Part shown: positions 2,413 through 27,754 of the stretch, piece by piece | Layout of the letters: each line of letters opens with the position of its first letter | How positions within the stretch are numbered: the first letter of the stretch is position 1 | Position numbers and translations under genes: made by a program | Assembly: GCF_000007985.2 (NCBI RefSeq) | Contig: NC_002939.5 | Location: forward strand, 2,400,001-2,432,000 | DNA from: Geobacter sulfurreducens PCA | GTDB taxonomy: Bacteria; Desulfobacterota; Desulfuromonadia; Geobacterales; Geobacteraceae | Direction of reading: 5' to 3' | Length of the DNA: 32,000 bases | The notes under the pieces: model-generated | Seen by the model: the letters and a program-made list of their open reading frames with translations, nothing else | Databases searched by the model: none | Told to the model about the DNA's origin: nothing

Positions 2413-2527
2413 ATACTTACCCGTTTATTTCGTTGCTACCGACAATCAATGCCGGCCAGCAAAAATTGTTATTCAACAACCAGATAGATAAGCATTGCTC
2501 ACGTATCGGTTCCGGCCACGAAGGCAA

Positions 2528-4267
2528 TCAGGGTTGCGTGAGCAGAAAGTCCGGATCCGCAAAGGTCCCTGCCGGCGTGAGCCCCCGAATCCGGTAGTAC
2601 TTCTGAAGCTCCTCGTCGAACCGGCCACGGTCGATGGGGGGAATGTCGACCCCTTCGCCGCTGGAGCCGGGTTCCGCAAAAAACCTCGCGGGCAGACAAT
2701 CATCCTTCACATCAAATCCGTTCGCACAGTTGTAGAACCGTTCGGTGAGACAGATCCGCCGCCCGATCTCCTTGAGGGACTGGGGCGTGTACTCGGTGCC
2801 GGTTGCGGCGGAGAGCAGTTCGGCATACTCTTCCAGCGTTGCACCGAAAAAGGAGAACTTACAGGCGACCAGGGAGTCGATGGCGGCATTGGTGTCTTCG
2901 GCAATGGCAATGATCCGCGCCTTGCCCGAAAACGAGAAACGGTCGGTGGCCACGGGCTTGCGCAGAATCTCGTGGGAGATGGGATAGGCCCTCAGATGGC
3001 ACCCCCCGCGATTGCTCGTACAGTAGGCGAGGGCCATGCCGTAGGCGCCGCGGGGATCATATGCCGGCAACTCCAGTCCCTTTACCTCCATGGACAGCTC
3101 AGGGCGGCCCAACGCTCGGGCTGCGCGCCGCGATCCCAAGGAAAGCAGCTCCCCGTCACCCCGGCGTAATGCCGTATCGACCAGCAGCCGCTGCACCTCC
3201 TCCCCGCCAGGGAAGCGGCCTCGGACCTCGCCCCAGGCCGAGAGCGTTGCGGCTGCGGAAATGGTGTCCATGCCCAGCTCATTGCACAGGGTGTTGGACT
3301 TGACGATGACATCAAGGCTCGCGATACCGTTCAGGGCGCCGAAGTGGGAAACAGTCTCGTACTCGGGGAGATGCTCACCCCGGGGCGTGCTTTTTTTGCA
3401 CTGGATGGGACAGCCGTAGCAGCCGTCCTTTTTCGCCTGATAGGCGCTCCGGATGGCCGGCCCCGAGTAGTTTGCCGATCCCTCGAAGACCGTATGGCGG
3501 AAGTTTTCCGTAGGGGCCATGCGCCGCTGGCGCATGAGGTCCACCAGGGCGGGGGTGCCATATTCCGCAATGCCCAGCTCACCGAAGATGACGGGCGAGG
3601 CCCGGAACAGGCGCATGACGTCCTGCCGCGCCCGGTCGAACCGCTCCCGATCCGCAACCGCCACGGGAATATCGCCGTTCACCACGACCGCCTTGAGCCC
3701 CTTGGCCCCCATGACCGCACCAAGCCCTCCCCGCCCTACCGAATTCCCTTCGCCCATCATGATATTGGCAAAGAGAACCCCGTTCTCGCCGGCAGGTCCG
3801 ATAGCGGCCACGCTACCCCGCCCTGACAGGGCCGCAACGGTTTCAGGCACCGTCTGACCCCAAAGCTCGGGCACATCCACAAACTCGACCCCGCCCGCCG
3901 TCACGACCAGGGTCACCGGCGTCTCGCTCCGGCCGGACAGGCGCAGCGCATCCACACCGAGACCCTTGAGGCGCCAAGCGAACCGCCCGCCGGCAGAACA
4001 ATCGTAAATGGTGCCGGTCAGGGGCGAGCGGGACACTACCGTAAGCCGGGCCGCCGTGGGCGCAGAAGTACCGCACAGGGGCCCCACGGCGAAGATGAGG
4101 GGCATGACAGGGTCAAAGGGGTCAAGGGCATGGAAACCGCGCATGAGACGGACCCCGAGCCCTCTCCCCCCCAGGTAGGCGTGCAAGAGTTCAACCGACA
4201 GATCCTCGCGCCATGCTGCGCGGGACGACAGATCAATATTCAGAATCGTACCGGTCCAACCAAACAT
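2528..4267 (-). CDS. aor: Aldehyde:ferredoxin oxidoreductase, tungstopterin/[4Fe-4S] family
   Basis: The ORF track gives 2528..4279 (GTG). I prefer the ATG at 4267 because AOR proteins start M(F/Y)GW.G..L..(D/N)L, here MFGWTGTILNIDLS. Contains CYGCPIQCKK (C-x2-C-x3-C cluster ligands), GLGAVMGAKGLKAVVV and CHLRAYP. Confidence 0.85.
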   Translation of the reverse strand: MFGWTGTILNIDLSSRAAWREDLSVELLHAYLGGRGLGVRLMRGFHALDPFDPVMPLIFAVGPLCGTSAPTAARLTVVSRSPLTGTIYDCSAGGRFAWRLKGLGVDALRLSGRSETPVTLVVTAGGVEFVDVPELWGQTVPETVAALSGRGSVAAIGPAGENGVLFANIMMGEGNSVGRGGLGAVMGAKGLKAVVVNGDIPVAVADRERFDRARQDVMRLFRASPVIFGELGIAEYGTPALVDLMRQRRMAPTENFRHTVFEGSANYSGPAIRSAYQAKKDGCYGCPIQCKKSTPRGEHLPEYETVSHFGALNGIASLDVIVKSNTLCNELGMDTISAAATLSAWGEVRGRFPGGEEVQRLLVDTALRRGDGELLSLGSRRAARALGRPELSMEVKGLELPAYDPRGAYGMALAYCTSNRGGCHLRAYPISHEILRKPVATDRFSFSGKARIIAIAEDTNAAIDSLVACKFSFFGATLEEYAELLSAATGTEYTPQSLKEIGRRICLTERFYNCANGFDVKDDCLPARFFAEPGSSGEGVDIPPIDRGRFDEELQKYYRIRGLTPAGTFADPDFLLTQP

Positions 4268-4337
4268 ATACTTACCCACTTATTGCGGCGTCAAAAATAA
4301 AATAATCTTAGCCAGATGCATCATCCGACTCCTACGC

Positions 4338-4991
4338 TCAGACAAAGAGCGGCAGAGTCACCAGGGCACCATAGGTGTCGACCAGATAGTCGGCGTCGGC
4401 AATTTCGCTCCGTTCACCATATCCCCAGGTACACCCCACGGTGGTAACGCCCGCCCCTTTGCCGGCGGCCACGTCATTGATACTGTCGCCGATGATGACG
4501 GCCCGTTCCCGCGGCACGCCAAAGTCCGCCAACAGCTTCAGTACAGGCTCCGGTGACGGCTTGCGCGCGGGAAGCGAGTCCGCCCCCATGATCTCCTCGA
4601 ACCACTGCTCGGCCCCCAGGGCAACGAGCACGCTGCGACAGAGATCGACGTTCTTGTTGGAGATGACCGCCATCCGCTTTCCCTGTCCGCGAAACCGGGC
4701 CAGCGCCTCCAGAGCACCCGGGTAGAAGGCCGTACGCACCGCGATGTGTTCCCGGTTGTAGTCGAGAAACAGCTCCAGCCCGCGCTCGATCTCTGCCGCG
4801 GCGCCGCCGGGCATGGCGCGCTCCACCAGCCGCCGCGCCCCCTGCCCCACCATGGTGCGAACGGCATCGCGGGTGAGACGCTCCCGCCCCAGCGCGGAGA
4901 GCATATGGTTCACGGCATCGGTGAGATCGTCGAGAGAATCGATAAGGGTTCCATCAAGGTCGAAGATGATAAGATCAATTGAAGGGGGCAC
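4338..4991 (-). CDS. gph: HAD-superfamily phosphatase, phosphoglycolate phosphatase-like
   Basis: 217 aa with GTG start at 4991 and GGAG 9 nt upstream. HAD motif I FDLDGTL, motif II ISNK, motif IV GDSINDV. Confidence 0.7.
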   Translation of the reverse strand: MPPSIDLIIFDLDGTLIDSLDDLTDAVNHMLSALGRERLTRDAVRTMVGQGARRLVERAMPGGAAAEIERGLELFLDYNREHIAVRTAFYPGALEALARFRGQGKRMAVISNKNVDLCRSVLVALGAEQWFEEIMGADSLPARKPSPEPVLKLLADFGVPRERAVIIGDSINDVAAGKGAGVTTVGCTWGYGERSEIADADYLVDTYGALVTLPLFV

Positions 4992-5061
4992 GGCCGGGCT
5001 CCGTCATGTGATATCAGCTCAACATCTGACTATAATTGGTTTCCGTGCCCCACCGCAACAG

Positions 5062-5090
5062 AAAAGCCCGTCCGCAGCCGGACGGGCTTT
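5062..5090 (-). terminator. Rho-independent terminator after the ferritin-like gene
   Basis: On the minus strand AGCCCGTCCG-GCTG-CGGACGGGCT (10-bp stem) is followed by TTTTCTGTT. It lies 23 nt downstream of the stop at 5113. Confidence 0.75.
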
Positions 5091-5112
5091 GTAACGCCAC
5101 GCGCACTCTCCG

Positions 5113-5604
5113 TCAGTACTCCTTGAGGTTGCTGAATTCGCCCCAGGCCAGATAGGTCTTGGGCTCCTCAATGAACGAGTAGATATTTTCAACAATGCTC
5201 AGGTGCCTCCGCTCCTCATCGGCGAGCTTGAGCAGAATGGCGCGCGTGTCCTCCCGCTCCGCCTTGGCAGCCAGATCCTCGTAAAACTTGATGCTTTCTT
5301 CTTCCTCTTTCACCACATGCCGGTAACCGTCCGGGTCGCGCCGCAGTTCCGCCACCAGATCACGTTTGCCGAGCAGCGGCTTGAACACGCACGAGGCATC
5401 ATCCAGAGCAGTGAATGCGGTCGCGGCGGCATCGGCATCGCCAAGCATGGCGACGAGTTTGTCGTGGTGCTCCTTTTCAGCCGCGGCCAGCAGCCCGAAG
5501 ATACTCCTCAACTCTTCCACCGGCGCAGCAGCCGCCAGTTGGCTGTAATGGGCGGCTGCCTCTTCTTCCATCCTGAGAGCGCAGTCGATGAGATTCATAT
5601 TCAA
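5113..5604 (-). CDS. Ferritin-like/rubrerythrin-family di-iron protein (no rubredoxin domain)
   Basis: 163 aa. Two E...ExxH-type helices (EEEAAAHY...EKEHHDKL and EEEESIKFYEDL...DEERRHLSIVE). Confidence 0.65.
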   Translation of the reverse strand: MNMNLIDCALRMEEEAAAHYSQLAAAAPVEELRSIFGLLAAAEKEHHDKLVAMLGDADAAATAFTALDDASCVFKPLLGKRDLVAELRRDPDGYRHVVKEEEESIKFYEDLAAKAEREDTRAILLKLADEERRHLSIVENIYSFIEEPKTYLAWGEFSNLKEY

Positions 5605-5742
5605 GCCCCCTTTCCTTGGAGTGACTATTGGTACTCCTACTGAAAGGATACCAGATTACTCCGTTTTTTTCACGGGGGCCGAGCGGGAAAGAAGGGGTTG
5701 CATATGAAAAGGGCGCCGTTGCCGGCGCCCTTTGCGGTGTGT

Positions 5743-8789
<3,047 letters not shown>

Positions 8790-8853
8790 TTAGTGGTGGG
8801 TCTCAAAGTATTAACCGAAAAGAATAGTGGAGGGACAAGGATGAGTCAAGGGG

Positions 8854-8890
8854 AAAAACCGGGGCCGGAGAGTATACGTTCCCCGGCCCC
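8854..8890 (-). terminator. Rho-independent terminator after the M42 peptidase gene
   Basis: On the minus strand GGGGCCGGGGA-ACGTATAC-TCTCCGGCCCC (11-bp stem with one G.U) is followed by GGTTTTTCC. Confidence 0.75.
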
Positions 8891-8906
8891 GGTCTATGGT
8901 GCGCGG

Positions 8907-9986
8907 TCAGCGGGGAGTGAAGTCGCCCGCCATCCCCGGCAAGGCCGCCACGATCAGCCTGACCGCCTGATCAAGATCGGAGAGGGAAATCACCTCCACC
9001 GGCGTATGCATGTAGCGGAGCGGCAGCTTGACCAGGGCGGTGGCGACGCCGCCGCGGGAGATCTGCATGACGTTGGCATCGGTACCGGAAGCCCGGGGGA
9101 TACCCGTATACTGGACAGCGATCTCCTCACGCTCCGCCGTTGAGGAAAGCAGATCAAAGAGAGGCGGATTGATATTGGCCCCACGGGGCAGGATCGGCCC
9201 CTTGCCGAGCTTGACCTCGCCGTTGTGCTTCTTCTCCACGTCGGGCTGATCAGTGGCGAAGTCCACCTCGACGCAGATACCCACGTGGGGATTGACGCTG
9301 TAGGCGCTGGTTGCGCCGCCGCGCAGCCCGATCTCTTCCTGTACCGAGGAGACGCCGTACAGATCAACCGGCAGTTTCACCCCCGATTCGGCCACGGCCC
9401 GGAGCACCTCGGCCACCACGAAGCTGCCGGCCTTGTCGTCGAACGCCCGGCAGGCAACCCGATCGCCCAGCAGGCGTTCGAAGCCGGCGGCAAAGGTGAC
9501 CGGGTCACCCACACGCACGTACTCCAGGGCCTCCTTCTTGTCGGTAGCGCCTATGTCGATGTACTGGGCGTCGAGGCGAACCACCTTCCGCCGGTCTTCC
9601 TCGTCCATCAAATGGATCGGCTTCTTGCCGATGACGCCTGCCACCTCGCCCTTGGCCGTGTGGATGCGAACCCGCTTCCCCGGCGTCAGGTGGGCGTCCA
9701 CCCCGCCGATCGGCGCAAAATAGATGAAGCCGTTGTCGTCGATGTACTTGACCTGAAAGCCTATCTCATCCGAGTGGCCGACCACCATCACCCGCGGCAG
9801 GTTCTCCCCCCCGCCGCGAATGAGACCGATCACGTTGCCCATGACATCGGTCTTCACCTCCGCGAAGGGGGCTATGTAGTCGCGAAACACCCGTTGGGCC
9901 GGCTGCTCGTAGCCGGAAGGGCTGGGGGCCTCCACAAGTTTTTTGAAAAATTCCAGAGATTCCGGACGCATGAAAGAATCCTCCAC
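8907..9986 (-). CDS. M42-family metallo-aminopeptidase (FrvX/endoglucanase-like)
   Basis: 359 aa. Pattern L...PSPSGYE near the N-terminus, VMVVGHSDEIGF, AFDDKAG and VQEEIGLRG are typical of M42 peptidases. Confidence 0.8.
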   Translation of the reverse strand: MEDSFMRPESLEFFKKLVEAPSPSGYEQPAQRVFRDYIAPFAEVKTDVMGNVIGLIRGGGENLPRVMVVGHSDEIGFQVKYIDDNGFIYFAPIGGVDAHLTPGKRVRIHTAKGEVAGVIGKKPIHLMDEEDRRKVVRLDAQYIDIGATDKKEALEYVRVGDPVTFAAGFERLLGDRVACRAFDDKAGSFVVAEVLRAVAESGVKLPVDLYGVSSVQEEIGLRGGATSAYSVNPHVGICVEVDFATDQPDVEKKHNGEVKLGKGPILPRGANINPPLFDLLSSTAEREEIAVQYTGIPRASGTDANVMQISRGGVATALVKLPLRYMHTPVEVISLSDLDQAVRLIVAALPGMAGDFTPR

Positions 9987-11877: not shown

Positions 11878-12081
11878 GTAGTGCCTCTTTCCAGGTAACT
11901 CCCGCCTATAGTAAGCAATCGGGGGCTCGGACGTCAACCGCTATCGCCACCGGGCATCCGTCATGGCCGCGTTACGTGATTCTGCCAATTGACCGAGGCG
12001 ATTTCGCCATGTGACGGAACCGAAACACAGGTTTTGCAACCAACATACAGAAATACAGATATTTGCATTTTATATCTTAAT

Positions 12082-12098
12082 TGGTCTTTATATTGCAT
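12082..12098 (+). promoter_or_regulatory. Candidate sigma54 (-24/-12) promoter upstream of the porin-like gene
   Basis: TGGTCTTTATATTGCAT has GG (12083-84), exactly 10 nt, then GC (12095-96). The -12 element TTGCAT is consensus and the -24 element is TGG only. It would give a leader of about 210 nt. Confidence 0.3.
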
Positions 12099-12319
12099 AG
12101 CTGGAATGTTTAAGTATCACGATTATGTGAATGCGATTGGCAAAACACGGGGGTCGCTTTAAAATTAACAAAATTTTATGTCAGGCCACCGCTCCCGACA
12201 CGAAGGAGGTGAAGACACAGCATCAATACGGCGGACTCAAACGCATCCCCCCGCCGAAGTATCAAAGCGGTTCGCGGCACGGTAGTTCACTTTTATTGTT
12301 TTATGGGAAAGGAGAGCAC

Positions 12320-13915
12320 ATGAAGCGTATGTCCAAAAAGGTTCTGGCAGCTGCCCTTCTGCTCGGTCTCAGCCAACCGTTCTCGGTTATGGCGGCCGAT
12401 ACCGACCTGCAGAAGAAGATGGAAAGCCTCGAGAAAGAACTTGAGGCCCTGAAGCAGCAGATGCAGGACACCGACAAGAAGGTCGATAAGGTTGAGCAGA
12501 AGTCCCTGGGTCGCTGGCTGACCATCAGCGGGGATTACCGGTTCAGGGTCGACTCTCTCAAGGGCAAAATTGTAGATCACGCCAGCGGTCCTGTGTTCGG
12601 ACAAACATACATGGCAAGGCTACTGGCAGGAGATACCCCCAACGTCGCACAGGCGACAGCTTTTGCCGCATCACAGCAGGCTGGTCAAGGATACAAACCC
12701 AAAAACGACTCTCTTATGACCCACCGCTTCGGGCTTAATCTTAAAGCCAAAGCCACCAAAGATGTTTCTGTCACTGCACGCCTTCTCATGTACAAAACCG
12801 CAGGCGCTCAAGATGATGATGCCGTAACCCCGGGTTACTTTGCAGATCGAACCGGCGTATTCGATGGAACACTTGGCCACATACCTTCTGACGGTCGACT
12901 CGCCGTTGACCGCGCCTACGCGACATGGAGCAACATCGGTGACGAGCCAATTTGGTTCTCAGTTGGTCGTAGGCCCTCAACTGGCGGAGTACCAACTCAC
13001 CTTAAGGAGAACAGGGAAAAACCTGACAGCAGTGGAACTCCTGCGCTTCTAGTTGATTATGCCTTTGACGGCATGACTGTAGGATGGGCGCCTGACCTTG
13101 AGGCGCTACCAGGAGCATATGCTAAGATCTGCTATGGTAGAGGTTTCGAAAACGGATTCACTGGGAAAAACGTCAACAATAGTCTCCATGACACCGACAT
13201 GCTCGGCGTGCAGATTATACCTTATGACACAGATGCACTCAGTATATTTTTCCAGTACAACAGAGGCTTCAACATTTTCGACTTTCCGAAGATGACTAGC
13301 TCAGCATTCGGCGACACGGCTCCAAGTACTGACCTAGGTGCCATCGACTGGTATGGGCTAAACTTCCTAGGCAAAGTAAAGAACATCGGCATTGGTAATT
13401 TCAATTGGTTTGTAAGTGGTGCCATAAGTGACGCTCAACCGAACAAAAATGTATCTGTCGCCGCAGGCAATCTCGGTCTTATGAACGGCACTTTCCTTGG
13501 CCAACAGGATGCAAGCAGCTTCAAGGATCGAACCGGTTGGGCCGTATACGCTGGCGGAAGGTACGACATCGAGTCAACCGGCACCAAACTCGGCTTCGAA
13601 TACAACCATGGTTCCAAAAACTGGATCACCTTTGCTCCGTCTGCCGATGATATGTGGACATCAAAGGTGGGAACCCGAGGCAACGCCTACGAGGGTTACA
13701 TAATTCAAGAACTGAAGCTGCAGCCCATCTCTTCATATCTGAGCAAAGTATTTTTCAAGCTCGGCTATCAGTATTATGATTTTGAGTACACTGGCAGTAA
13801 CAATTGGGTCGGAGCACCCCAAAAAATTGCAGACATTAAAGCTTCCGATCTCCAACTGATGGCTCCAGTTAAATACGCACAAGACATCTATGCAACCTTC
13901 GAGGTACACTTCTAG
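12320..13915 (+). CDS. Outer-membrane beta-barrel protein with N-terminal coiled coil (DUF3373-like porin)
   Basis: ATG at 12320 preceded by GGAAAGGAGAG. The ORF-track extension to 12131 has no support. Signal peptide MKRMSKKVLAAALLLGLSQPFSVMA/AD, a 35-aa heptad-like segment LQKKMESLEKELEALKQQMQDTDKKVDKVEQK, then alternating-polarity strands. The C-terminus YATFEVHF ends in Phe. GC is about 49% against about 61% in the flanks. Confidence 0.7.
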   Translation: MKRMSKKVLAAALLLGLSQPFSVMAADTDLQKKMESLEKELEALKQQMQDTDKKVDKVEQKSLGRWLTISGDYRFRVDSLKGKIVDHASGPVFGQTYMARLLAGDTPNVAQATAFAASQQAGQGYKPKNDSLMTHRFGLNLKAKATKDVSVTARLLMYKTAGAQDDDAVTPGYFADRTGVFDGTLGHIPSDGRLAVDRAYATWSNIGDEPIWFSVGRRPSTGGVPTHLKENREKPDSSGTPALLVDYAFDGMTVGWAPDLEALPGAYAKICYGRGFENGFTGKNVNNSLHDTDMLGVQIIPYDTDALSIFFQYNRGFNIFDFPKMTSSAFGDTAPSTDLGAIDWYGLNFLGKVKNIGIGNFNWFVSGAISDAQPNKNVSVAAGNLGLMNGTFLGQQDASSFKDRTGWAVYAGGRYDIESTGTKLGFEYNHGSKNWITFAPSADDMWTSKVGTRGNAYEGYIIQELKLQPISSYLSKVFFKLGYQYYDFEYTGSNNWVGAPQKIADIKASDLQLMAPVKYAQDIYATFEVHF

Positions 13916-13934
13916 GCCACAGCAGATGAACACC

Positions 13935-13963
13935 GGGAGGGAGGGCGCCAGCCCCCCTCCCCC
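13935..13963 (+). other. GC-rich intercistronic stem-loop without U-tract
   Basis: GGGAGGG(AGGG)...CCCTCCC can pair (7 bp or more), and no T-run follows. It sits between the porin-like gene stop and the small-protein RBS (AAAGGAG at about 14015). Confidence 0.3.
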
Positions 13964-14029
13964 AGCCCTACGGGGCACCATGCCACAGGCGGCCTGCTCC
14001 GCCAACAACAGTACAAAGGAGACGGAACA

Positions 14030-14341
14030 ATGAAAAAAGCAGTATCGATCGTTATGGCACTCGCACTCCTCACCATGAGCCTCGTTACCTTTAGCGGCAC
14101 GGCCAGCGCCGCCGAAGTGAAGATGATCGCCACCATCAAAAAGATTGAGATGAAGGGCAGCGCGGCAACGGTTACCCTGAAGGACACCAAGAGCGACAAG
14201 ACCGTAACCGTTACGGTCAAGGACGAGCTTACTCTCGACAAGTTCAAGGACAAGCGGATCGTTGAGGGCGACGAAATTCGCCTGAAGTATGACGATGCAA
14301 CGGGTGAGTCCAAGCTCTTCAGAAAGACCGCCGGCTGCTGA
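14030..14341 (+). CDS. Small secreted Lys-rich beta-type protein ending in Cys (unknown function)
   Basis: 103 aa, with RBS AAAGGAG 8 nt upstream. Signal peptide ...FSGTASA/AEVK. The mature protein is about 76 aa with alternating strands (VTLKDTKSDKTVTVTVKDELTL). Its only Cys is the very last residue (...KTAGC). Confidence 0.65.
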   Translation: MKKAVSIVMALALLTMSLVTFSGTASAAEVKMIATIKKIEMKGSAATVTLKDTKSDKTVTVTVKDELTLDKFKDKRIVEGDEIRLKYDDATGESKLFRKTAGC

Positions 14342-14376
14342 TGCTCCGGGGGCGCTGGAGCCCTCTGCGGAACCGT

Positions 14377-14409
14377 TGCAGCCCGGGCGCCTCGGCTGCA
14401 ATTTTCTTC
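14377..14409 (+). terminator. Probable intrinsic terminator/attenuator after the small-protein gene
   Basis: TTGCAGCC-(10-nt loop)-GGCTGCAA forms an 8-bp stem, directly followed by TTTTCTTCC. Confidence 0.5.
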
Positions 14410-14420
14410 CGTTAATTAAT

Positions 14421-14468
14421 CGTTTTATTTAGATATATCATCTATATGTATAGCCAAATAAAACGAAC
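14421..14468. promoter_or_regulatory. 11-bp perfect inverted repeat in the AT-rich region upstream of the octahaem gene
   Basis: TCGTTTTATTT (14421-14431) and AAATAAAACGA (14458-14468) are exact reverse complements separated by 26 nt. The spacer contains the palindrome GATATATC (14433-14440) and several -10-like hexamers. Confidence 0.4.
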
Positions 14469-14489
14469 AACTTACGCACGAGGTACCCA

Positions 14490-15860
14490 ATGAAGAATAC
14501 GACGTTCATCGCCACCCTCATGGCGAGCGTGGCAGTGGCGGCCCTGGTACAGGCCAAGGATCATCCGGGCAAGGAATATATCCAGAAAAACGGCTACCAG
14601 GGGCCGGCAACCTGCGAGGTCTGCCATCCCGGCGCGGCAAAGGAGTTCCTGAACTCCGTGCACTGGAAGCACGCCTCGAAGGTCGACAACGTTGAGAACA
14701 TTGACCCGAAGCAGGAATACGGCATGAAAAACCGTATCTACACCATGTGCAACGGGAACGACATCGTCAACAATCTGAAGGAGATTCCGCCCAGCCCCGA
14801 GACGGGCAAGACCAAGTACTCGGGCTGCAACTCCTGCCATCCCGGGAATCACATCCAGGACGTGGGGAGCACCGGGCCCGAAGCGGAAGCCGCAGTGGAC
14901 TGCCTTGTCTGCCACTCCTCCACCTATGATCACAGCAAGCGCAAGCCCTTCAAAGACGAGAAGGGGAACGTGGTGCTCGGCCAGGATCGCAGCACCGATG
15001 CGGCCCTTTCCATTGCCACCCCGACGGTCAAGAACTGTATGACCTGCCACGAGGCTGCAGGGGGCGGCGTGCTGGTGAAGCGCGGGTTCGCCTTCAACAA
15101 GGAGCACGATGTCCATGCGGCCAAGGGGATGGTCTGCGTCGACTGCCACAAGACGAAGAACCACAAGATCCCCACGGGCTACGATCCGAACAACTGGGCC
15201 CATGACGGCGTACGTCTCTCCTGCACCGACTGCCACACGGCAAAGCCCCACAAGGACGAGGACTACAACCGCCATACGGCGCGCATCGCCTGTCAGACCT
15301 GCCACATCCCCCGGACCGGCGGCGCCTTTGCCAAGGATTTCACGAAGTGGGAACAGCTCTCCAACAAGTTCTACGAGCCGACCACGCTCAAAAAAGAAGC
15401 AAATGAAACGGCTCCCGTCTACGCATGGTACAACCTGACCGTGGCCAACCGCCCTGACTTCATCGGGCCCAAGGGTGACCGCAAGGACGGCAAGAGCAAG
15501 ATCTACCCTTTCAAGATCTTCCAGGGCAAGGCGTACTTTAACAAGAAGGACGGCCAGCTCCTGTCCATGGACTTCGCTCCGCCCATGGCAACGGGTGACA
15601 CCCTCGCCGGCGTGGCATCAGCTGCCAAAATCCTTGGGATCAAGGATTACGAACCGGTCCCCGGCTGGCAGACCATCTACTTCGGCAGCAACCACCAGGT
15701 GGCTCCCAAGGAGAAGGCTCTTACCTGCTATAACTGCCATGCTCCCAACGGCATTCTGAACTTCCGCGAGCTCGGCTATTCGTCCGACGAGGTCAAAAAG
15801 CTCACGAGCCCCGAACTCTACTTTGAGAAAATCGCAGAGAAGATGCGGGAAGAGTGGTAA
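14490..15860 (+). CDS. Octahaem c-type cytochrome, Sec-exported
   Basis: 456 aa, with RBS GAGG 6 nt upstream. Signal peptide ...AALVQA/KD. Eight CXXCH motifs (CEVCH, CNSCH, CLVCH, CMTCH, CVDCH, CTDCH, CQTCH, CYNCH). About 145 haem-free residues separate haems 7 and 8. Confidence 0.9.
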   Translation: MKNTTFIATLMASVAVAALVQAKDHPGKEYIQKNGYQGPATCEVCHPGAAKEFLNSVHWKHASKVDNVENIDPKQEYGMKNRIYTMCNGNDIVNNLKEIPPSPETGKTKYSGCNSCHPGNHIQDVGSTGPEAEAAVDCLVCHSSTYDHSKRKPFKDEKGNVVLGQDRSTDAALSIATPTVKNCMTCHEAAGGGVLVKRGFAFNKEHDVHAAKGMVCVDCHKTKNHKIPTGYDPNNWAHDGVRLSCTDCHTAKPHKDEDYNRHTARIACQTCHIPRTGGAFAKDFTKWEQLSNKFYEPTTLKKEANETAPVYAWYNLTVANRPDFIGPKGDRKDGKSKIYPFKIFQGKAYFNKKDGQLLSMDFAPPMATGDTLAGVASAAKILGIKDYEPVPGWQTIYFGSNHQVAPKEKALTCYNCHAPNGILNFRELGYSSDEVKKLTSPELYFEKIAEKMREEW

Positions 15861-15893: not shown

Positions 15894-15924
15894 GGGAGGT
15901 GGACCCAGTCCACCTCCTTTTTTT
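15894..15924 (+). terminator. Rho-independent terminator of the octahaem gene
   Basis: GGGAGGTGGAC-CCA-GTCCACCTCC followed by TTTTTTT. Confidence 0.85.
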
Positions 15925-15943
15925 GTGCCCGCCGTCAGGGTAC

Positions 15944-16002: not shown

Positions 16003-16926
16003 TCAGGTGGGGCAGGAACTTCGGTGACACTGGTCGGTAAACACCGTGTCCAGGCACGCCAGGAAGTCGCTGACCAGCCGATCCTGCACCTTGCTCCTGC
16101 TCAGGGCGACCGTCCGCTGGCGGCTGTGGCAGAATCCCTCGACTCTGTGCTGCTTCAGCTGGCCGTTTTCCAGATATTTATTCACCAGACAGGAGGAAAC
16201 GAACGCCACCCCTCCCCCGTCAAGGACCGTATCGACCGTGAGATGCAGATCGTCATAGACCACGGTGCTCCGGAACCCCTCCAGGTCCTTGCCGATGGAG
16301 GCAAGATTGAGCCTGAGCAGTTTCTTGGAACTGCAGCCGTCCTTGCGCGTGATGAGGCGTTCCTCGAAGAGCCGCTCGATCGTCACGAGCGGAGTGGGGA
16401 TGCCGAGAGACGGCGCGCTCACGAAGACCAGTTCGTCCCGCGGCAGGGTCGCAGTATGGAAATCGGCCAGGTCCAAGTCTTCGCAGTGCTCTATGATACC
16501 GATATCGAACTCCCGTTCGGCCAGCCCCTTTACCGCCTGCTCCGGGCTGTAGAACATGAACTTGAGATCGACGATATCGGCGTTGCGCAGCATGAACCGG
16601 TTGAGAACCTTGGGCATGTGGGCGATGCCGAACGATGGCGTACAGCAGATGGAAAGGCGCTGCCTTCCGGTAAATTTCTTGAGTTCGTCCTGCAGTGTCT
16701 TCTCGATGTCGAGGATGGCCTGGGCCTTCCGTACCACGGCCTCACCTGCAGCGGTGAGCATCATGACAGGACCCGAGCGATCCAGCAACTCGCAGCCGTA
16801 ACGCTCCTCGAGGAACTTGACCCGTTGCGACACCGCAGATTGGGTGATGCACAGCTCTGCAGCGGCCTTGGAAAAACTTCCTTTCTCAGCCGTCACGATG
16901 AGCGTTTTGAGATACAGCGTCTCCAT
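16003..16926 (-). CDS. LysR-family transcriptional regulator
   Basis: The ORF track starts at a TTG (16956). I prefer the ATG at 16926, with GGGAAGG 6 nt upstream, giving METLYLKTLIVTAEKGSFSKAAAELCITQSAVSQRVKFLE, a canonical LysR wHTH. A C-terminal substrate-binding-like domain follows. Confidence 0.9.
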   Translation of the reverse strand: METLYLKTLIVTAEKGSFSKAAAELCITQSAVSQRVKFLEERYGCELLDRSGPVMMLTAAGEAVVRKAQAILDIEKTLQDELKKFTGRQRLSICCTPSFGIAHMPKVLNRFMLRNADIVDLKFMFYSPEQAVKGLAEREFDIGIIEHCEDLDLADFHTATLPRDELVFVSAPSLGIPTPLVTIERLFEERLITRKDGCSSKKLLRLNLASIGKDLEGFRSTVVYDDLHLTVDTVLDGGGVAFVSSCLVNKYLENGQLKQHRVEGFCHSRQRTVALSRSKVQDRLVSDFLACLDTVFTDQCHRSSCPT

Positions 16927-17042
16927 ACCAAACCTTCCCGAAAGAAACTTCCCCAACCATCCTCTAGATAACGACCCATCATAAATAAAATTATCGATGC
17001 CGCCGCTGAAGCCGCATTAGAACTGCGTGTTTTTTCATACCT

Positions 17043-17057
17043 ATAAGTTTTGCTTAT
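17043..17057. promoter_or_regulatory. LysR-type T-N11-A dyad (ATAAG-N5-CTTAT)
   Basis: Perfect interrupted palindrome ATAAGTTTTGCTTAT in the 314-bp lysR/decahaem divergent region. It fits the T-N11-A rule and is flanked by a second, roughly concentric dyad: CATTAGAA (17015-22) and TTCTAATG (17080-87). Confidence 0.4.
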
Positions 17058-17240
17058 ACAAACACAAATAAAATGCGGTTTCTAATGTGTGCTTTCAGAA
17101 GTACTATTTGCATTCGTGAAGACGCAATAACCTTGCCACGACCACTAACCCATGGAAGGAGGAAATAGATACCCGATTATCATTCGATATTCTGAATAGT
17201 TAGAAATTCCAAGAACAACACACCAACGAAAGGAGCAACC

Positions 17241-18332
17241 ATGCGAAACAAGCTGTATGGCGTGAAAGCGCTAAAAATGGCCGGAATGGTCGCGATTTCG
17301 CTGCTTGTCGGTGCCTGCGCCACCGGGAAGATCAGGGAACGGGTCCTGACATTGCCGACCATCGAAGGCGCTTCGTACGTCGGCGACACAGACTGTGCCC
17401 AGTGCCATGACAAGATCGCGGCACCCTTCGTCCGGAGTATTCACGGCCGGATCGCCGACTTCGAAGTGATGGGGGGAACCAGGGGATGCGAGTCATGCCA
17501 CGGTGCCGCCAGCCTTCACACCACGGAAGGAGATTCCGCCAAGATTCTTTCGTTCGCAAGCCTGTCGTCGGACCAGGCATCTGCCGTCTGCCTCAAATGC
17601 CACTCGGCCGGCACCCACATGGAGTGGGCAGGCAACGAACATGCCCTCAACGATGTGGCCTGCACCGACTGTCATAAAATCCACCAGGACAAGACCGTTG
17701 CCCCGCACAGCCTGAAAATGGCACAGCCCGAGCTCTGCTACTCCTGCCATCAGGAGTATCGCGCAAAGGCCAACTTCCCTTCCCACCATCCCATCCGAGA
17801 GGGGAAAATGACCTGCACGAGCTGCCACGAAGCCCACGGTTCCGGCCAGAAGAACCTGAAGACCGAGGAGCGGGTGAACGACCTCTGCCTTAACTGCCAC
17901 AGCCGCTACCAGGGGCCCTTCGTCTTCGAGCATGCGCCGGTCCAGGAAGACTGCACCATCTGTCATGACGCACACGGCACCGTAGCCAACAACCTGCTTC
18001 GCCAGAGCGAGCCCTTCCTCTGCCTCCAGTGCCACGAGAGCCACTTCCACATCACCCGCGAGGGAGCCACGATCCCGGCGGGCAATGTCGCCCTTGACGC
18101 CAACAAGGACGGGGGCACCACCTACCCTGCCGGCCAGACGATCAGCTCATCCAACAGCGTAACCATGCCGAACAATCTCGGCGCTGAAGGATGGCGGATG
18201 GCCTTCGGCACCAAGTGCAGCGTATGCCACACCCAGGTGCACGGCAGCGACCTTCCCTCCCAGACCGCACCCACGGTCAACAGCACCGGCACCAGGGGAT
18301 GGCCGTCCGGCGGCAAGGGATTGACCCGCTAA
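17241..18332 (+). CDS. Decahaem c-type cytochrome, MtrA/DmsE/PioA family, with lipoprotein signal
   Basis: 363 aa, with RBS AAAGGAG 6 nt upstream. Ten CXXCH motifs. Strong resemblance to the Shewanella MtrA blocks I recall (LCYSCH...SHHP....MTCTSCHEAHGS, NDLCLNCH...GPFVFEHAPV.EDCTICHDAHG, LCLQCH, C-terminal CSVCHTQVHGS). The signal peptide ends in the lipobox-like LLVGAC. Confidence 0.9.
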   Translation: MRNKLYGVKALKMAGMVAISLLVGACATGKIRERVLTLPTIEGASYVGDTDCAQCHDKIAAPFVRSIHGRIADFEVMGGTRGCESCHGAASLHTTEGDSAKILSFASLSSDQASAVCLKCHSAGTHMEWAGNEHALNDVACTDCHKIHQDKTVAPHSLKMAQPELCYSCHQEYRAKANFPSHHPIREGKMTCTSCHEAHGSGQKNLKTEERVNDLCLNCHSRYQGPFVFEHAPVQEDCTICHDAHGTVANNLLRQSEPFLCLQCHESHFHITREGATIPAGNVALDANKDGGTTYPAGQTISSSNSVTMPNNLGAEGWRMAFGTKCSVCHTQVHGSDLPSQTAPTVNSTGTRGWPSGGKGLTR

Positions 18333-18356
18333 CAACTTCTAGAGAAAGGAGCTTCT

Positions 18357-20384
18357 ATGCGACATATCGGTAAATGGCTCATGCCGTTGCCCGTACTGAT
18401 CCTCTGCGCCCCGCTTGCTCTCCTTGCCGAGGAAGGTCACAAGCCCTTCTCGGCCACCATGGAAACGGGTGGAGCGGGGCTTGCGGTCTCCGACGACATC
18501 AGCCGGGTGAACGAATATTCCTCCGTCAGAACCGAGCCCGGCATCAACCCGTACGGCAAGGTCGACATCCAAATCGACAAGGGAGGAGTCGAACTGGACC
18601 TCAACAGCCGCTACCTGGATTCCCGCGACCAGACCCACGGTGCGCGGATCGACGTGAAGCGGTTCTTCAAGAGCAGTTTCAGCTACGATGCCTTCCAGCA
18701 CTGGCTCGACCATGACAAACTCCAGTATCTGGATGCCTCGATCCCGGCTGCACCGGTGGCGGGCGCGTTCGATACCACCGGAGCCATCCTCGGCGTGCCC
18801 ACCGCTACCGGCACCACAAATCTTTACGCGTACACCGCCAACCCGATCGGACCGAACTTCGCGCCCAACTTCCTCGTTACGCGCAGATCCGACGGGGCTC
18901 GCTTCGTAACCAACGTGGCGCCGTCCGACACGGCAACCTATGCCGTTCAGCAACTCGGCCGGGCATCACTGTACGGCGAGGATATGGTTCCGAACCAGGA
19001 CTTTTCCATCGTGCGGCGGGAGTGGAAGAGCAATTCCGACTTCACCATCCCCCAACTGCCCAATCTCACCTTTCACTTCGGTTTCCGGGAGGAGACCCGT
19101 GAAGGGTGGGAGCAATCCATCGGCATGAGCAAGTGCACCTCGTGCCACATTACCGGCCAAAGCAAGCAGATCAGCGAAAGCACCCGCGACCTGACCGCGG
19201 GAGTGACCGGCAAATTCGGTCTCCTGACCATGAACTACACCTATCTGAACCGCCAGTTCCGTGAGAACGGCGCCGATCCGGTCCGCCGCTACGACCCGGC
19301 CCTCTCGCCAGGGGCAGCGCTGCCTGCAAACTACTATACCGGGGCAAACTCCCCCCCCACCTTCGACAACCGGATGCTCTACGATTACCGGGACGGCTAC
19401 CTGCCTTACGACGTGACCCCAGACTCCAACAAGGACAGCCACGTTGTCAAAGCCAAGGTTGATCTTCCCCGGGACACCACGGTCTTTGCCAGCTACGTGA
19501 AAGCAACGGTGGATAGCGACAAATCGGACGATCCCGGCTACTTCACCCTGGACAAGAAGACCCTCGAATCCGAGTATGACGCCTGGAGCGGCAAGGTCAG
19601 CACCACTCTCTGGAAACGACTGACTCTCACTCTTCGGGGCAAGCTGGAAAAACTCCAGGATGACGACGTGGCCATCACCTACACGCCCATCGCCTACAAC
19701 GACGGCAATGCCGCCAATGACATCTTCGGCTTCCCCGGCGCCACGGCTTCGGACATCCTGATGCTGCAAACCATCAACCGCCACTCCAGCGCATCGCGCG
19801 ACGTGGCGACCCTGGGGCTCGACTCGGTCTACCGCCTGGCGAAGCGAACCACCCTCCGCCTCTCCTACGAGTTCAAAAACGAGGATCGCGACGACTCCTT
19901 CTTCGGCACAACCAAGACGCACACCGTCAAGGCCGCCCTCAACGCCAGGCCCACCAATACCCTTTCGGCCCGGGCAAGCTACACCTTCAAGGCCATCGAA
20001 AACCCTTTCCAGAACCCAACCGCCGGGCTGGTCCCCTTCACCCAGTCGGCCAGCGGCTACGGCTACCTGGTGGGCAACGGCCCCACCTATGGCGTTGAGT
20101 TTTACGACCGCAGGACTGCCGACCTGACCAACCGCCCCGACACGGTCCACGAGGGGAGCCTTTCCACCACCTGGTCCCCCTCGCCGCGCTTCTCCGCCAC
20201 GGCCTTCGTGCGGGTGAAGAATGAAAGCAACGACCTGAATAAAACCACCTGGAAACAGGAGACTTACGTGCCGGGCGTATCGCTCTGGTACGCCCCCTCG
20301 GACAAGGTGAGCATGACCCTGGCATACACCTATCTCAAGCAGACGACCGAGAATTCAATGTGCCAGGGGCTTTACGACGGCTGA
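18357..20384 (+). CDS. MtrB/PioB-like outer-membrane beta-barrel, N-terminal 675 codons up to the in-frame TGA
   Basis: RBS AAAGGAG 6 nt upstream, 24 nt after the decahaem stop. Signal peptide ...APLALLA/EE. Long run of amphipathic strands. Internal CTSCH at aa 260-264. As written it ends ...CQGLYDG with no OMP beta-signal. Confidence 0.75.
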   Translation: MRHIGKWLMPLPVLILCAPLALLAEEGHKPFSATMETGGAGLAVSDDISRVNEYSSVRTEPGINPYGKVDIQIDKGGVELDLNSRYLDSRDQTHGARIDVKRFFKSSFSYDAFQHWLDHDKLQYLDASIPAAPVAGAFDTTGAILGVPTATGTTNLYAYTANPIGPNFAPNFLVTRRSDGARFVTNVAPSDTATYAVQQLGRASLYGEDMVPNQDFSIVRREWKSNSDFTIPQLPNLTFHFGFREETREGWEQSIGMSKCTSCHITGQSKQISESTRDLTAGVTGKFGLLTMNYTYLNRQFRENGADPVRRYDPALSPGAALPANYYTGANSPPTFDNRMLYDYRDGYLPYDVTPDSNKDSHVVKAKVDLPRDTTVFASYVKATVDSDKSDDPGYFTLDKKTLESEYDAWSGKVSTTLWKRLTLTLRGKLEKLQDDDVAITYTPIAYNDGNAANDIFGFPGATASDILMLQTINRHSSASRDVATLGLDSVYRLAKRTTLRLSYEFKNEDRDDSFFGTTKTHTVKAALNARPTNTLSARASYTFKAIENPFQNPTAGLVPFTQSASGYGYLVGNGPTYGVEFYDRRTADLTNRPDTVHEGSLSTTWSPSPRFSATAFVRVKNESNDLNKTTWKQETYVPGVSLWYAPSDKVSMTLAYTYLKQTTENSMCQGLYDG

Positions 20385-20822
20385 GCGGGCATCATCGTAT
20401 CGGGCCAGTTTGGCTCGACTTGTGACGAATACCAGTACGACACCGACGTCCACACGGTATCGCTCACCACAAACTATGACGCAACCGAGAAGCTCAAGCT
20501 CTTCGCCAATGCCATGTACAACGACGCCGAAGCCCGCATGAACGGCCTCTATTTCCCCTCGTTCGCGGAACTCGGCTACACGGACCCGGTCCTCACCTCC
20601 GCCTTCTACGGTCTGCAAAACCTGCCGCGCATCCAGGAGTATTCCGACCTCCGCTACCGGCAGATCGACCTGAGCGCCGGGGGAACGTACCAATTCACCC
20701 CCAATCTTTTCATGACCGCCCAGGCCGGATTCCAGCAGTTCATGGACGATGCCCCCTATGTCTACGGTGACCAGGACGGCATCACCTACACCGGGTCGGT
20801 CGGAATCGGTTATAAGTTCTAG
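20385..20822 (+). CDS. In-frame C-terminal continuation of the same barrel (145 codons) carrying the beta-signal
   Basis: Same frame as 18357..20384, with no stop between 20385 and 20820. GC3 of the 44 codons from 20385 through the first ATG (20514-20516) is about 77% (34/44), which is coding-like. No SD precedes the ATG at 20514. Ends ...YTGSVGIGYKF, a typical OMP C-terminus, and the strong terminator comes only after it. Confidence 0.6.
   Translation, partial: AGIIVSGQFGSTCDEYQYDTDVHTVSLTTNYDATEKLKLFANAMYNDAEARMNGLYFPSFAELGYTDPVLTSAFYGLQNLPRIQEYSDLRYRQIDLSAGGTYQFTPNLFMTAQAGFQQFMDDAPYVYGDQDGITYTGSVGIGYKF
20395..20428 (+). other. SECIS-like hairpin downstream of the in-frame TGA
   Basis: Apical hairpin U-CGGGCC-AGUUU-GGCUCG-A (20400-20418: 7 bp with one G.U, pentaloop containing GU, loop G 26 nt from the U of UGA). 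A 4-bp lower stem UCGU/ACGA (20395-98 with 20425-28) lies across an asymmetric internal loop. Confidence 0.3.
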
Positions 20823-27660: not shown

Positions 27661-27754
27661 GGGAACTCCCGGATGAGTGAGGAGTAGACGCGCCGGCAAT
27701 CCGGCGGCGACTCATCGTTTTTTTCCCGGCATGCGGCGCGCGGATTCCAGTGGG

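Follow-up and report, generated by a model that had tools for sequence, protein, structure and literature searches.

A stretch of 32,000 nucleotides (nt) of Geobacter sulfurreducens PCA DNA (NC_002939.5, positions 2,400,001 to 2,432,000; hereafter referred to as the window) contains three consecutive genes encoding an outer-membrane barrel protein of the DUF3373 family, a small secreted protein with an invariant C-terminal cysteine and an eight-haem cytochrome related to octahaem tetrathionate reductase (OTR). These genes, hereafter referred to as the barrel, small and octahaem genes and collectively as the trio, retain their order and strand in 68 of 74 loci across several phyla, indicating that they form a functional unit. 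Our favoured interpretation, held with moderate confidence, is that the trio constitutes a self-contained, porin-fed periplasmic redox-enzyme module acting on sulfur-type compounds, and not an electron conduit. The three genes are as follows:

12320-13915, plus strand: barrel gene, 531 amino acids (aa), from the list of open reading frames (ORFs), with its ATG behind the ribosome-binding site GGAAAGGAG (GGAAAGGAGAGCAC ATG).
14030-14341, plus strand: small gene, 103 aa, of which 76 aa form the mature protein; terminal cysteine codon at 14336-14338.
14490-15860, plus strand: octahaem gene, 456 aa, with eight CXXCH motifs.

An earlier note, made from the sequence alone, had described three same-strand genes for a 531-aa outer-membrane protein, a 76-aa mature secreted protein and an eight-haem cytochrome, and the ORFs and the eight CXXCH motifs bear this description out. 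All three products have a type-I signal peptide, and no lipobox cysteine was found in any of them. Sequence searches recovered hundreds to thousands of homologues for each ORF, and these reading frames are therefore not due to chance. By synteny, the octahaem gene should be GSU2201 and the trio GSU2199-2201.

The conservation of the trio was assessed from loci seeded with each gene in turn. The octahaem-seeded set comprised 80 genome loci, one per species, with 7-kb flanks, to which three loci from exact-protein look-ups were added (83 in total); 74 of these loci could be judged upstream. The genes were contiguous in the order barrel, small, octahaem in 52 loci, and in 16 others this order was interrupted by a single additional gene, inserted between the small and octahaem genes. 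All three genes were present in 71 of the 74 loci, with three of these loci displaying another arrangement, and the last three loci lacked one or two members. In the small-seeded set (80 metagenome loci), the barrel gene lay directly upstream in 42 of the 47 loci that could be judged and the octahaem gene lay downstream in 34 of 48; several of the other loci had it upstream of the barrel gene instead. The barrel-seeded look-ups recovered the trio in three cases out of three. The earlier note had made its proposal of a linked module dependent on the co-occurrence of these genes in other genomes, and this co-occurrence is conserved.

According to the record titles, the hosts belong to Geobacteraceae, Desulfuromonadaceae, Holophagaceae, other Acidobacteria, Anaeromyxobacter, Myxococcales, Bdellovibrionales, Desulfobulbales, Candidatus Deferrimicrobium and Gemmatimonadota. 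The genes are separated by gaps of 10 nt in a Holophaga locus (L001), and the gap between the small and octahaem genes has a median length of 78 nt, decreasing to 1 nt in some contiguous loci. The octahaems of Holophagaceae are 80-81% identical to that of the window, whereas MiaB proteins are only 61-75% identical within Geobacteraceae; the trio is thus both mobile and strongly constrained as a block. Trio-type octahaem and small genes were also found on short contigs of two metagenome-assembled genomes (MAGs) labelled Actinomycetota/Trebonia (L039 and L077), for which mis-binning is a likelier explanation than biology, because an outer-membrane-porin module would otherwise lie in Gram-positive bins.

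The barrel protein has a 25-aa signal peptide, with cleavage between MKRMSKKVLAAALLLGLSQPFSVMA and AD, and its C-terminus reads ...FEVHF. It matched the Pfam family DUF3373 (PF11853) over the entire profile (positions 1-409 of 409; E = 2.4e-161; 537.8 bits, for a cut-off of 26.1); this match, together with a barrel of porin size, a signal peptide and a C-terminal aromatic residue, places it in the family with which the earlier note had associated it. In the AlphaFold model (predicted template modelling score of 0.70), a single helix spanning aa 27-61 (35 residues; nt 12398-12502) is followed by about 16 strands, consistent with the 35-residue coiled coil directly after the signal peptide and the barrel ending in Phe recognised in that note. 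The best matches in a Foldseek comparison with the PDB were porins and channels of 16-18 strands (E ~1e-10, identity 7-13%): AlgE, PorB, Omp32, OmpF, OprP, OprB, DcaP and the Campylobacter major outer-membrane protein. MtrB was absent from the best 50 matches, and the MtrB_PioB hidden Markov model (HMM) did not match the DUF3373 barrel, whereas it did match the neighbouring barrel encoded from position 18357. Judging from the predicted structure, the DUF3373 barrel resembles diffusion porins, not MtrB. A barrel of porin size is too small to sheathe a multihaem cytochrome in the way that the larger MtrB sheathes MtrA. DUF3373 corresponds to family 1.B.62 of TCDB, consisting of putative porins with 18 strands (PMC4827864), and a DUF3373 protein ranks among the most abundant in Dissulfuribacter thermophilus cells that are disproportionating thiosulfate. 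The trio would provide a first functional context for these porins. The G+C content of the barrel gene region (12001-14000) is 0.50-0.51, versus 0.60-0.64 around it, which is consistent with a horizontal origin or with unusual codon usage in the porin.

The CXXCH motifs of the octahaem begin at residues 42, 113, 138, 183, 216, 245, 268 and 413. The best NCBIfam model was TIGR04315, with 165.5 bits over the full length; as the curated cut-off is 375, the octahaem is a relative rather than a member of this curated subfamily. The only solved structure found was that of Shewanella oneidensis OTR (PDB 1SP3), with E = 2.4e-28 in the single-sequence search and E = 8.3e-34 in the profile search (profile positions 41-436 on chain positions 21-435). 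All eight haem motifs were in register with those of OTR in the family alignment. The octahaem, with its eight CXXCH motifs and full-length homology, therefore belongs to the OTR family, and it also carries the C-terminal Cytochrome_cB domain. By contrast, TIGR03508, the model for MtrA/DmsE-type cytochromes, gave a score of only 43 bits, for a cut-off of 192. These comparisons assign the octahaem to a periplasmic catalytic family, that of OTR, and not to an electron-conduit family. GSU2201 was named "PpcF" and predicted to be periplasmic in one paper; this name is ambiguous, as it has also been given to a trihaem of G. metallireducens. The PpcF/OTR group is present in at least 54% of Desulfuromonadia species, and OTR is related to the NrfA/ONR enzymes (PMC11492766).

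The catalytic haem of OTR, haem 2, is bound at C74xxC77H78 and ligated by Lys56 (PMC3769277). The OTR residues G55-K56-K57-N58...C64 were aligned opposite G78-M79-K80-N81...C87 of the window protein, giving the following positions:

14826-14840, plus strand: haem-2 motif, C113-H117.
14724-14726, plus strand: Met79, in the column of OTR Lys56.
14748-14750, plus strand: Cys87, in the column of OTR Cys64.

Both Met79 and Cys87 were conserved in at least 98% of 121 sequences; Lys80 fell below 98% and is replaced in the clade representative P0361, which reads GMDNR. Other OTR relatives have GK, GM, GV, GF or GE at the Lys56 site. The haem-2 CXXCH motif is thus retained, and the column of the lysine ligand is occupied by an invariant methionine, so that the octahaem is, by alignment, a "Met-type" OTR homologue. 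Cys87 lies opposite OTR Cys64, a residue that we take to be close to the OTR active site. The homologues of the octahaem are 68-96% identical to the window protein, and a search of 1.84 billion cluster representatives placed the trio-type clade in one 50%-identity cluster (894.6 bits), with the next full-length single-domain relative at about 328 bits. Confinement to a single cluster of this type is the signature of a tightly constrained enzyme. The locus of Geomonas diazotrophica (L087, 8538-11660) has a tandem pair of OTR-like octahaem paralogues (488 and 463 aa) behind the barrel and small genes, and its barrel protein is longer (660 aa).

The families identified bear directly on the nature of the module. 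The earlier note had presented it as an outer-membrane cytochrome module distinct from the Mtr and porin-cytochrome complex (Pcc) types. The distinction holds, as there is no MtrB_PioB match, no MtrA/DmsE decahaem and no surface lipoprotein; the assignment to the outer membrane as a cytochrome module is not supported, because the barrel is porin-like, with about 16 strands, the octahaem is of the OTR family and has no lipobox, and there is no extracellular multihaem lipoprotein in the unit. A new type of porin-cytochrome conduit, with the octahaem, alone or complexed with a small protein serving as plug or adaptor, positioned in or at the DUF3373 barrel and passing electrons to extracellular acceptors, is accordingly very unlikely in our assessment. 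Such a conduit would fit the strongly conserved gene order, a host lineage rich in extracellular electron transfer, the true MtrB-like module next door and the shifts in GSU2201 levels with iron-oxide and Fe/Mn conditions. Nevertheless, in addition to the family assignments given above, the barrel and small genes also pair with a molybdoenzyme in loci with no octahaem in view (see below), and some of the lineages carrying the module are not known to respire metals (Bdellovibrionales, Gemmatimonadota MAGs, for example). For genome mining aimed at extracellular electron transfer, the trio serves as a caution that a barrel gene beside a multihaem gene does not, in itself, make a conduit, a lesson already drawn from the study of MccSep and the Ext cluster (see below).

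The proposed link to sulfur compounds comes from the genes accompanying the trio in other genomes. The ORFs of 83 loci were clustered and their representatives scanned, and targeted tblastn searches were performed over 86 loci, with flanks of 7-9 kb on each side. A secreted triple-rhodanese protein was encoded in 21 of the 86 loci, at any of three positions (between the small and octahaem genes, after the octahaem gene or farther downstream); its active-site cysteine loops are retained and one subtype has a CXXCH motif. An exported molybdoenzyme with a twin-arginine translocation signal was encoded in 19 loci. Its best match was the thiosulfate reductase PhsA (503 bits, for a cut-off of 694), and it was accompanied by iron-sulfur (FeS; 16 loci) and NrfD-type (12 loci) subunits. 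A sigma-54 activator gene was present within the flanks in 15 of the 86 loci, and an ArsR/SmtB-type, BigR-like regulator was adjacent in nine, the match to BigR being weak. No further cytochrome recurred in this census, except for OTR paralogues and a monohaem-rhodanese protein. Some metagenome loci (L147, at 2495-9320, L115, L116 and L156) had the barrel, small, triple-rhodanese, PhsA-like and NrfD genes but no octahaem gene in the stretch fetched; in L147, mobB and a cation-diffusion-facilitator gene lie ahead of this cluster. The tightest unit is thus the barrel-small pair, which combines with one or the other of two types of periplasmic reductase, each with characterised relatives that act on inorganic sulfur compounds.

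The same census is relevant to the possibility that the octahaem is a periplasmic nitrogen-oxide enzyme, reducing nitrite, hydroxylamine or NO, with its own porin and with the small protein in an accessory or stabilising role. In vitro, OTR from Shewanella is able to reduce both nitrite and hydroxylamine (Atkinson et al. 2007, as cited in PMC3769277 and PMC13510729), and the relationship of OTR to NrfA/ONR enzymes points in the same direction. However, no nitrogen-cycle genes recurred in the neighbourhoods; the recurring partners were rhodanese, PhsA-like, FeS and NrfD proteins and ArsR/BigR-like regulators. Furthermore, an invariant terminal thiol would have no obvious role in such an enzyme, and Lys56 is not conserved. 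We consider this function distinctly unlikely.

The small protein is cleaved after ...GTASA, leaving 76 aa, and belongs to no Pfam or NCBIfam family. The searches returned more than 3,000 hits for its family, which is unannotated. The C-terminus F[RK]KTAGC was present in 120 of 120 homologues among the matches listed, and the window copy ends in ...FRKTAGC. The AlphaFold model has an oligonucleotide/oligosaccharide-binding (OB) fold (strands b1-b3, a helix and strands b4-b5), with the tail residues at low confidence; Foldseek returned generic OB folds alone (best E = 3.8e-03). A PADLOC scan of the small protein found nothing, and an hhalign comparison of its profile with the N-terminal region of the rhodanese protein gave a non-significant probability of 1.5%, lending no support to a shared domain. 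A second cysteine (in EIRCKYE) is present 18 residues ahead of the terminal one in at least 90% of homologues; position 85 is Leu rather than Cys in the small proteins of the window, Holophaga and Gemmatimonadota. This pattern suggests that the cysteine at position 85 may be an optional resolving cysteine or form an intramolecular disulfide. A widespread unannotated family with an invariant terminal cysteine is thereby flagged.

Homologues of the small protein are labelled "Cu/Ag efflux protein CusF" or DUF5666 by some sources. No CusF or DUF5666 Pfam match was obtained up to E = 1 across 57 members, the conserved columns contain neither His nor Trp, and their only soft ligands are Met32 and Cys103. 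Membership of the CusF-type metallochaperones was therefore rejected, there being no HMM match and no conservation of the His/Met/Trp ligands. These results also lower the probability of a broader metal or metalloid function, in which the Cys-tailed OB protein would be a chaperone for Cu(I), As(III), Sb(III) or Se, delivering a cofactor to the octahaem or presenting a metalloid for reduction. The haem-copper site of MccA, which requires a cofactor metal, offers a parallel for metal delivery. Beyond the labels, this function would be in keeping with the adjacent ArsR/SmtB-type regulator in nine loci, the presence of the trio in Anaeromyxobacter sp. PSR-1, the neighbouring window module of a (seleno)protein family and the turnover of selenite, too, by MccSep (PMC13510729). 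Nevertheless, no efflux or ars genes recurred in the census, and the ArsR family includes sulfite and persulfide sensors; the match to BigR was weak. On balance, a metal or metalloid module appears rather unlikely.

The evidence on the three proteins and their partners can be brought together in a mechanism for the porin-fed sulfur module. The DUF3373 porin (about 16-18 strands, probably held by its periplasmic N-terminal coiled coil) would admit a small soluble substrate, most likely an inorganic sulfur species (polysulfide-, thiosulfate- or tetrathionate-like) or its selenium counterpart. The invariant terminal thiol on the flexible ...KTAGC tail of the small protein would capture or carry this substrate as a persulfide, polysulfide, thiosulfonate or mixed disulfide adduct, a capture that the triple-rhodanese sulfurtransferase may assist in about a quarter of loci. 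The tail would then present the substrate to haem 2 of the octahaem, close to Met79 and Cys87; a PhsA/PsrA-like molybdoenzyme would be the receiver, also or instead, in other genomes. The periplasmic cytochrome pool, together with quinol dehydrogenases of the inner membrane, would supply the electrons. By analogy to SoxY and DsrC, we tentatively suggest that the small protein might be a new periplasmic thiol carrier, their counterpart for reductive S/Se metabolism, loading interchangeable reductases (a Met-type OTR-like octahaem or a Psr/Phs-type molybdoenzyme). This carrier role of the tail is less certain than the assignment of the module as a porin-fed sulfur enzyme. If it is correct, the real substrate of the octahaem clade would be a protein-tethered sulfur species, rather than a free anion.

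Several points weigh against a sulfur function. Rhodanese or Phs genes accompany the trio in only about 24% of loci, and the locus in the window is not among them. The replacement of Lys56 by Met implies that haem 2 could be six-coordinate and non-catalytic, or that its chemistry could be unlike that of OTR. The response of GSU2201 transcript or protein levels to iron-oxide and Fe/Mn conditions could point to metal respiration, and the activity of OTR on nitrite and hydroxylamine cited above shows that it is not limited to sulfur compounds in vitro. In addition, tetrathionate, thiosulfate and related compounds are not known to support the growth of G. sulfurreducens (PMC13510729), and literature searches on GSU2199, GSU2200 and two guessed Gmet/Gura locus tags returned no papers. 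The barrel and the cytochrome both belong to known families, and the PpcF/OTR group was defined in a survey of Desulfuromonadia cytochromes (PMC11492766). In the literature searched, DUF3373 was mentioned in only three papers, and no description was found of the trio as a conserved unit, of the OB protein with its Cys tail, of the Met-type OTR clade or of the rhodanese/Phs link. An octahaem clade with two obligate-looking partners, and with rhodanese and Phs/Psr genes in many genomes, offers a testable route to function.

The intergenic regions of the trio contain several candidate regulatory elements:

12082-12097, plus strand: sigma-54-type promoter-like element TGGTCTTTATATTGCA, GG-N10-GC with TTGCA, about 225 nt upstream of the barrel ATG.
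14376-14409, plus strand: hairpin TTGCAGCC...GGCTGCAA followed by TTTTCTT, terminator/attenuator-like, between the small and octahaem genes, identified by repeat finding and folding.
14420-14467, plus strand: AT-rich dyad TCGTTTTATTT (14420-14430) / AAATAAAACGA (14457-14467) around TAGATATATCATCTATA, inside a 33-nt imperfect inverted repeat.
15894-15928, plus strand: terminator-like hairpin of 11 pairs (7 G-C) with a T-run, from the terminator scan, closing the unit.

A first search for sigma-54 sites (TGGCAC-N5-TTGCW, at most two mismatches) found no site near the trio; the element at 12082, which has three mismatches in the -24 box, emerged only from the alignment of related upstream regions. 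In 23 of 63 loci, a comparable GG-N10-GC element was present within the 420 nt preceding the DUF3373 gene, versus an expectation of about 0.19 per 420 nt. The hairpin at 14376-14409 was not listed by a simple terminator scan, but is supported by repeat finding, folding and conservation: a 79-nt stretch including it folded with -34.4 kcal/mol (z = -2.2), and its stem and T-tract were retained, with a variable loop, in 10 Geobacteraceae loci. When the entire window was compared with Rfam, no RNA family passed its gathering threshold, and this hairpin is thus not a described riboswitch or leader. The left half of the dyad, ATTCGTTTAT.TGAATATAT, recurs in related Geobacteraceae loci, and the dyad might act as an internal promoter or operator of the octahaem gene. 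Palindromes of the AGATAT/ATATCT type occur in both AT-rich leaders (AGATATTTGCATTTTATATCT at 12056-12077, upstream of the sigma-54-like box, and TAGATATATCATCTATA at 14430-14447), and a site for a common regulator is possible; a comparison of 11938-12319 with 14342-14489 for a common operator found only words of 7-8 nt in common, which is not convincing. We infer that, in Geobacteraceae, the porin and the carrier may form a sigma-54-type transcription unit ending at the hairpin, with the reductase expressed through attenuated read-through or from a separate promoter.

The hairpin with its U-tract and the AT-rich dyad region had been recognised in the earlier note, which took them as a sign that the genes may be co-localised but separately controlled. 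The elements are present and the terminator-like one is conserved in Geobacteraceae, so the seam is real, but the trio is kept as a unit in the great majority of loci, and co-localisation alone is not upheld. Three merely adjacent, separately expressed genes, for a general porin, a small protein with no connection to it and an independent periplasmic cytochrome, would account for the elements before the octahaem gene, and the abundant Dissulfuribacter DUF3373 protein would fit a general porin. However, order and strand are kept across phyla, many loci have gaps of 1-60 nt, the linkage holds from all three seeding directions, and the identity of the unit across phyla exceeds that of flanking housekeeping genes within a family. 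Chance proximity is thus scarcely credible. The hairpin seam matches the modular seam in the comparative data, between the barrel-small pair and its reductases, and is no argument against a functional link.

Upstream from the trio, the window contains guaA, guaB, genes for an M42 peptidase and a bifunctional nuclease, and miaB. Between the trio and the downstream genes lies a block (16003-20822) encoding a LysR regulator, a GSU2203-family decahaem and a GSU2204-family MtrB-like barrel. The LysR gene (16003-16956, minus strand) is convergent to the octahaem gene and belongs to a "multiheme cytochrome-associated" family (519 bits); the GSU2203/GSU2204-family MtrB-like module lies 1.4 kb downstream of the trio. 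This block was rejected as a partner of the trio, because it adjoins it only in the window and in loci L007 and L071. It is best regarded as an insertion, as the octahaem gene is directly followed by rpsT in a relative from the G. sulfurreducens group and in Geotalea uraniireducens, and has the appearance of a true porin-cytochrome module that brings its own regulator. The gene for its MtrB/PioB-like "(seleno)protein" barrel (18357-20822, plus strand) has its listed stop at a TGA (20382-20384), past which the frame continues for 146 codons to a TAG (20820-20822), ending in ...GIGYKF. An in-frame selenocysteine in this outer-membrane barrel, which also has a CXXCH motif, is probable from the reading frame; the Rfam scan of the window returned no selenocysteine insertion sequence (SECIS) family. 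Further downstream are holA, leuS and, beyond leuS, the gene for a 724-aa cytochrome (25525-27699, minus strand), a polymer of nine c7-type domains (Pfam Cytochrome_C7, nine stretches, E = 2.3e-170) syntenic with 709-717-aa proteins in loci L003 and L086.

The trio may be compared with several known systems. Its octahaem is closest to OTR (SO_4144, PDB 1SP3, TIGR04315), with which it shares homology over the full length, eight CXXCH motifs in the same order, the Cytochrome_cB domain, a soluble periplasmic nature and a cysteine in the Cys64 column. It differs from OTR in falling below the TIGR04315 cut-off, in having Met in place of Lys56 and in forming a tight clade of its own. The octahaem of this clade is regularly encoded beside a DUF3373 porin and a Cys-tailed OB protein.

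The MtrCAB, PioAB and MtoAB systems and the Pcc system OmaB-OmbB-OmcB resemble the trio in having a barrel gene beside a multihaem gene in a metal-reducing lineage. Unlike these conduits, the trio has no MtrA/DmsE-type decahaem, surface lipoprotein cytochrome or MtrB/PioB-type barrel, and does not belong among them. MtrB has 26 strands, whereas the DUF3373 model has about 16.

The ExtHIJKL cluster of Geobacter also encodes a small periplasmic protein and was first read as an electron conduit. ExtHIJKL and MccSep resemble the trio in their logic, a multihaem protein proving to be a periplasmic enzyme acting on sulfur compounds. The trio differs in having an OTR-type octahaem without selenocysteine and a DUF3373 barrel, and its NCBIfam matches to ExtM/N/O are weak. 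MccSep, a pentahaem selenoprotein of G. sulfurreducens, is a periplasmic polysulfide reductase with a haem-ligating Cys and a selenocysteine; earlier studies of ExtI, a porin, and of ExtH, a rhodanese-like lipoprotein, are cited in the same paper, whose authors consider the route of polysulfide across the outer membrane to be unknown (PMC13510729). The nucleophile of MccSep is in the enzyme, whereas the candidate nucleophile of the trio is a cysteine on a separate small protein.

The best structural matches of the barrel include the substrate-specific and coiled-coil porins OprP/OprO, OprB, AlgE and DcaP, which share only 7-13% identity with it. DcaP has an N-terminal periplasmic coiled coil and is anion-selective.

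Thiol-arm carriers include SoxY, with the C-terminal sequence GGCGG, DsrC/TusE, ending in ...PTGCV, and the Sud protein of Wolinella, which feeds polysulfide reductase. No kinship in sequence or fold was found between SoxY or DsrC and the small protein, both being absent from the 50 Foldseek matches listed, and the analogy is functional at most. DsrC has two cysteines, as do most homologues of the small protein, whereas the window copy lacks the second (Leu85). Like SoxY and DsrC/TusE, the small protein has a conserved cysteine at or near the C-terminus, on a flexible tail of small residues, and, like the thiol-arm sulfur carriers, it is periplasmic and associated with rhodanese and Psr/Phs-type enzymes.

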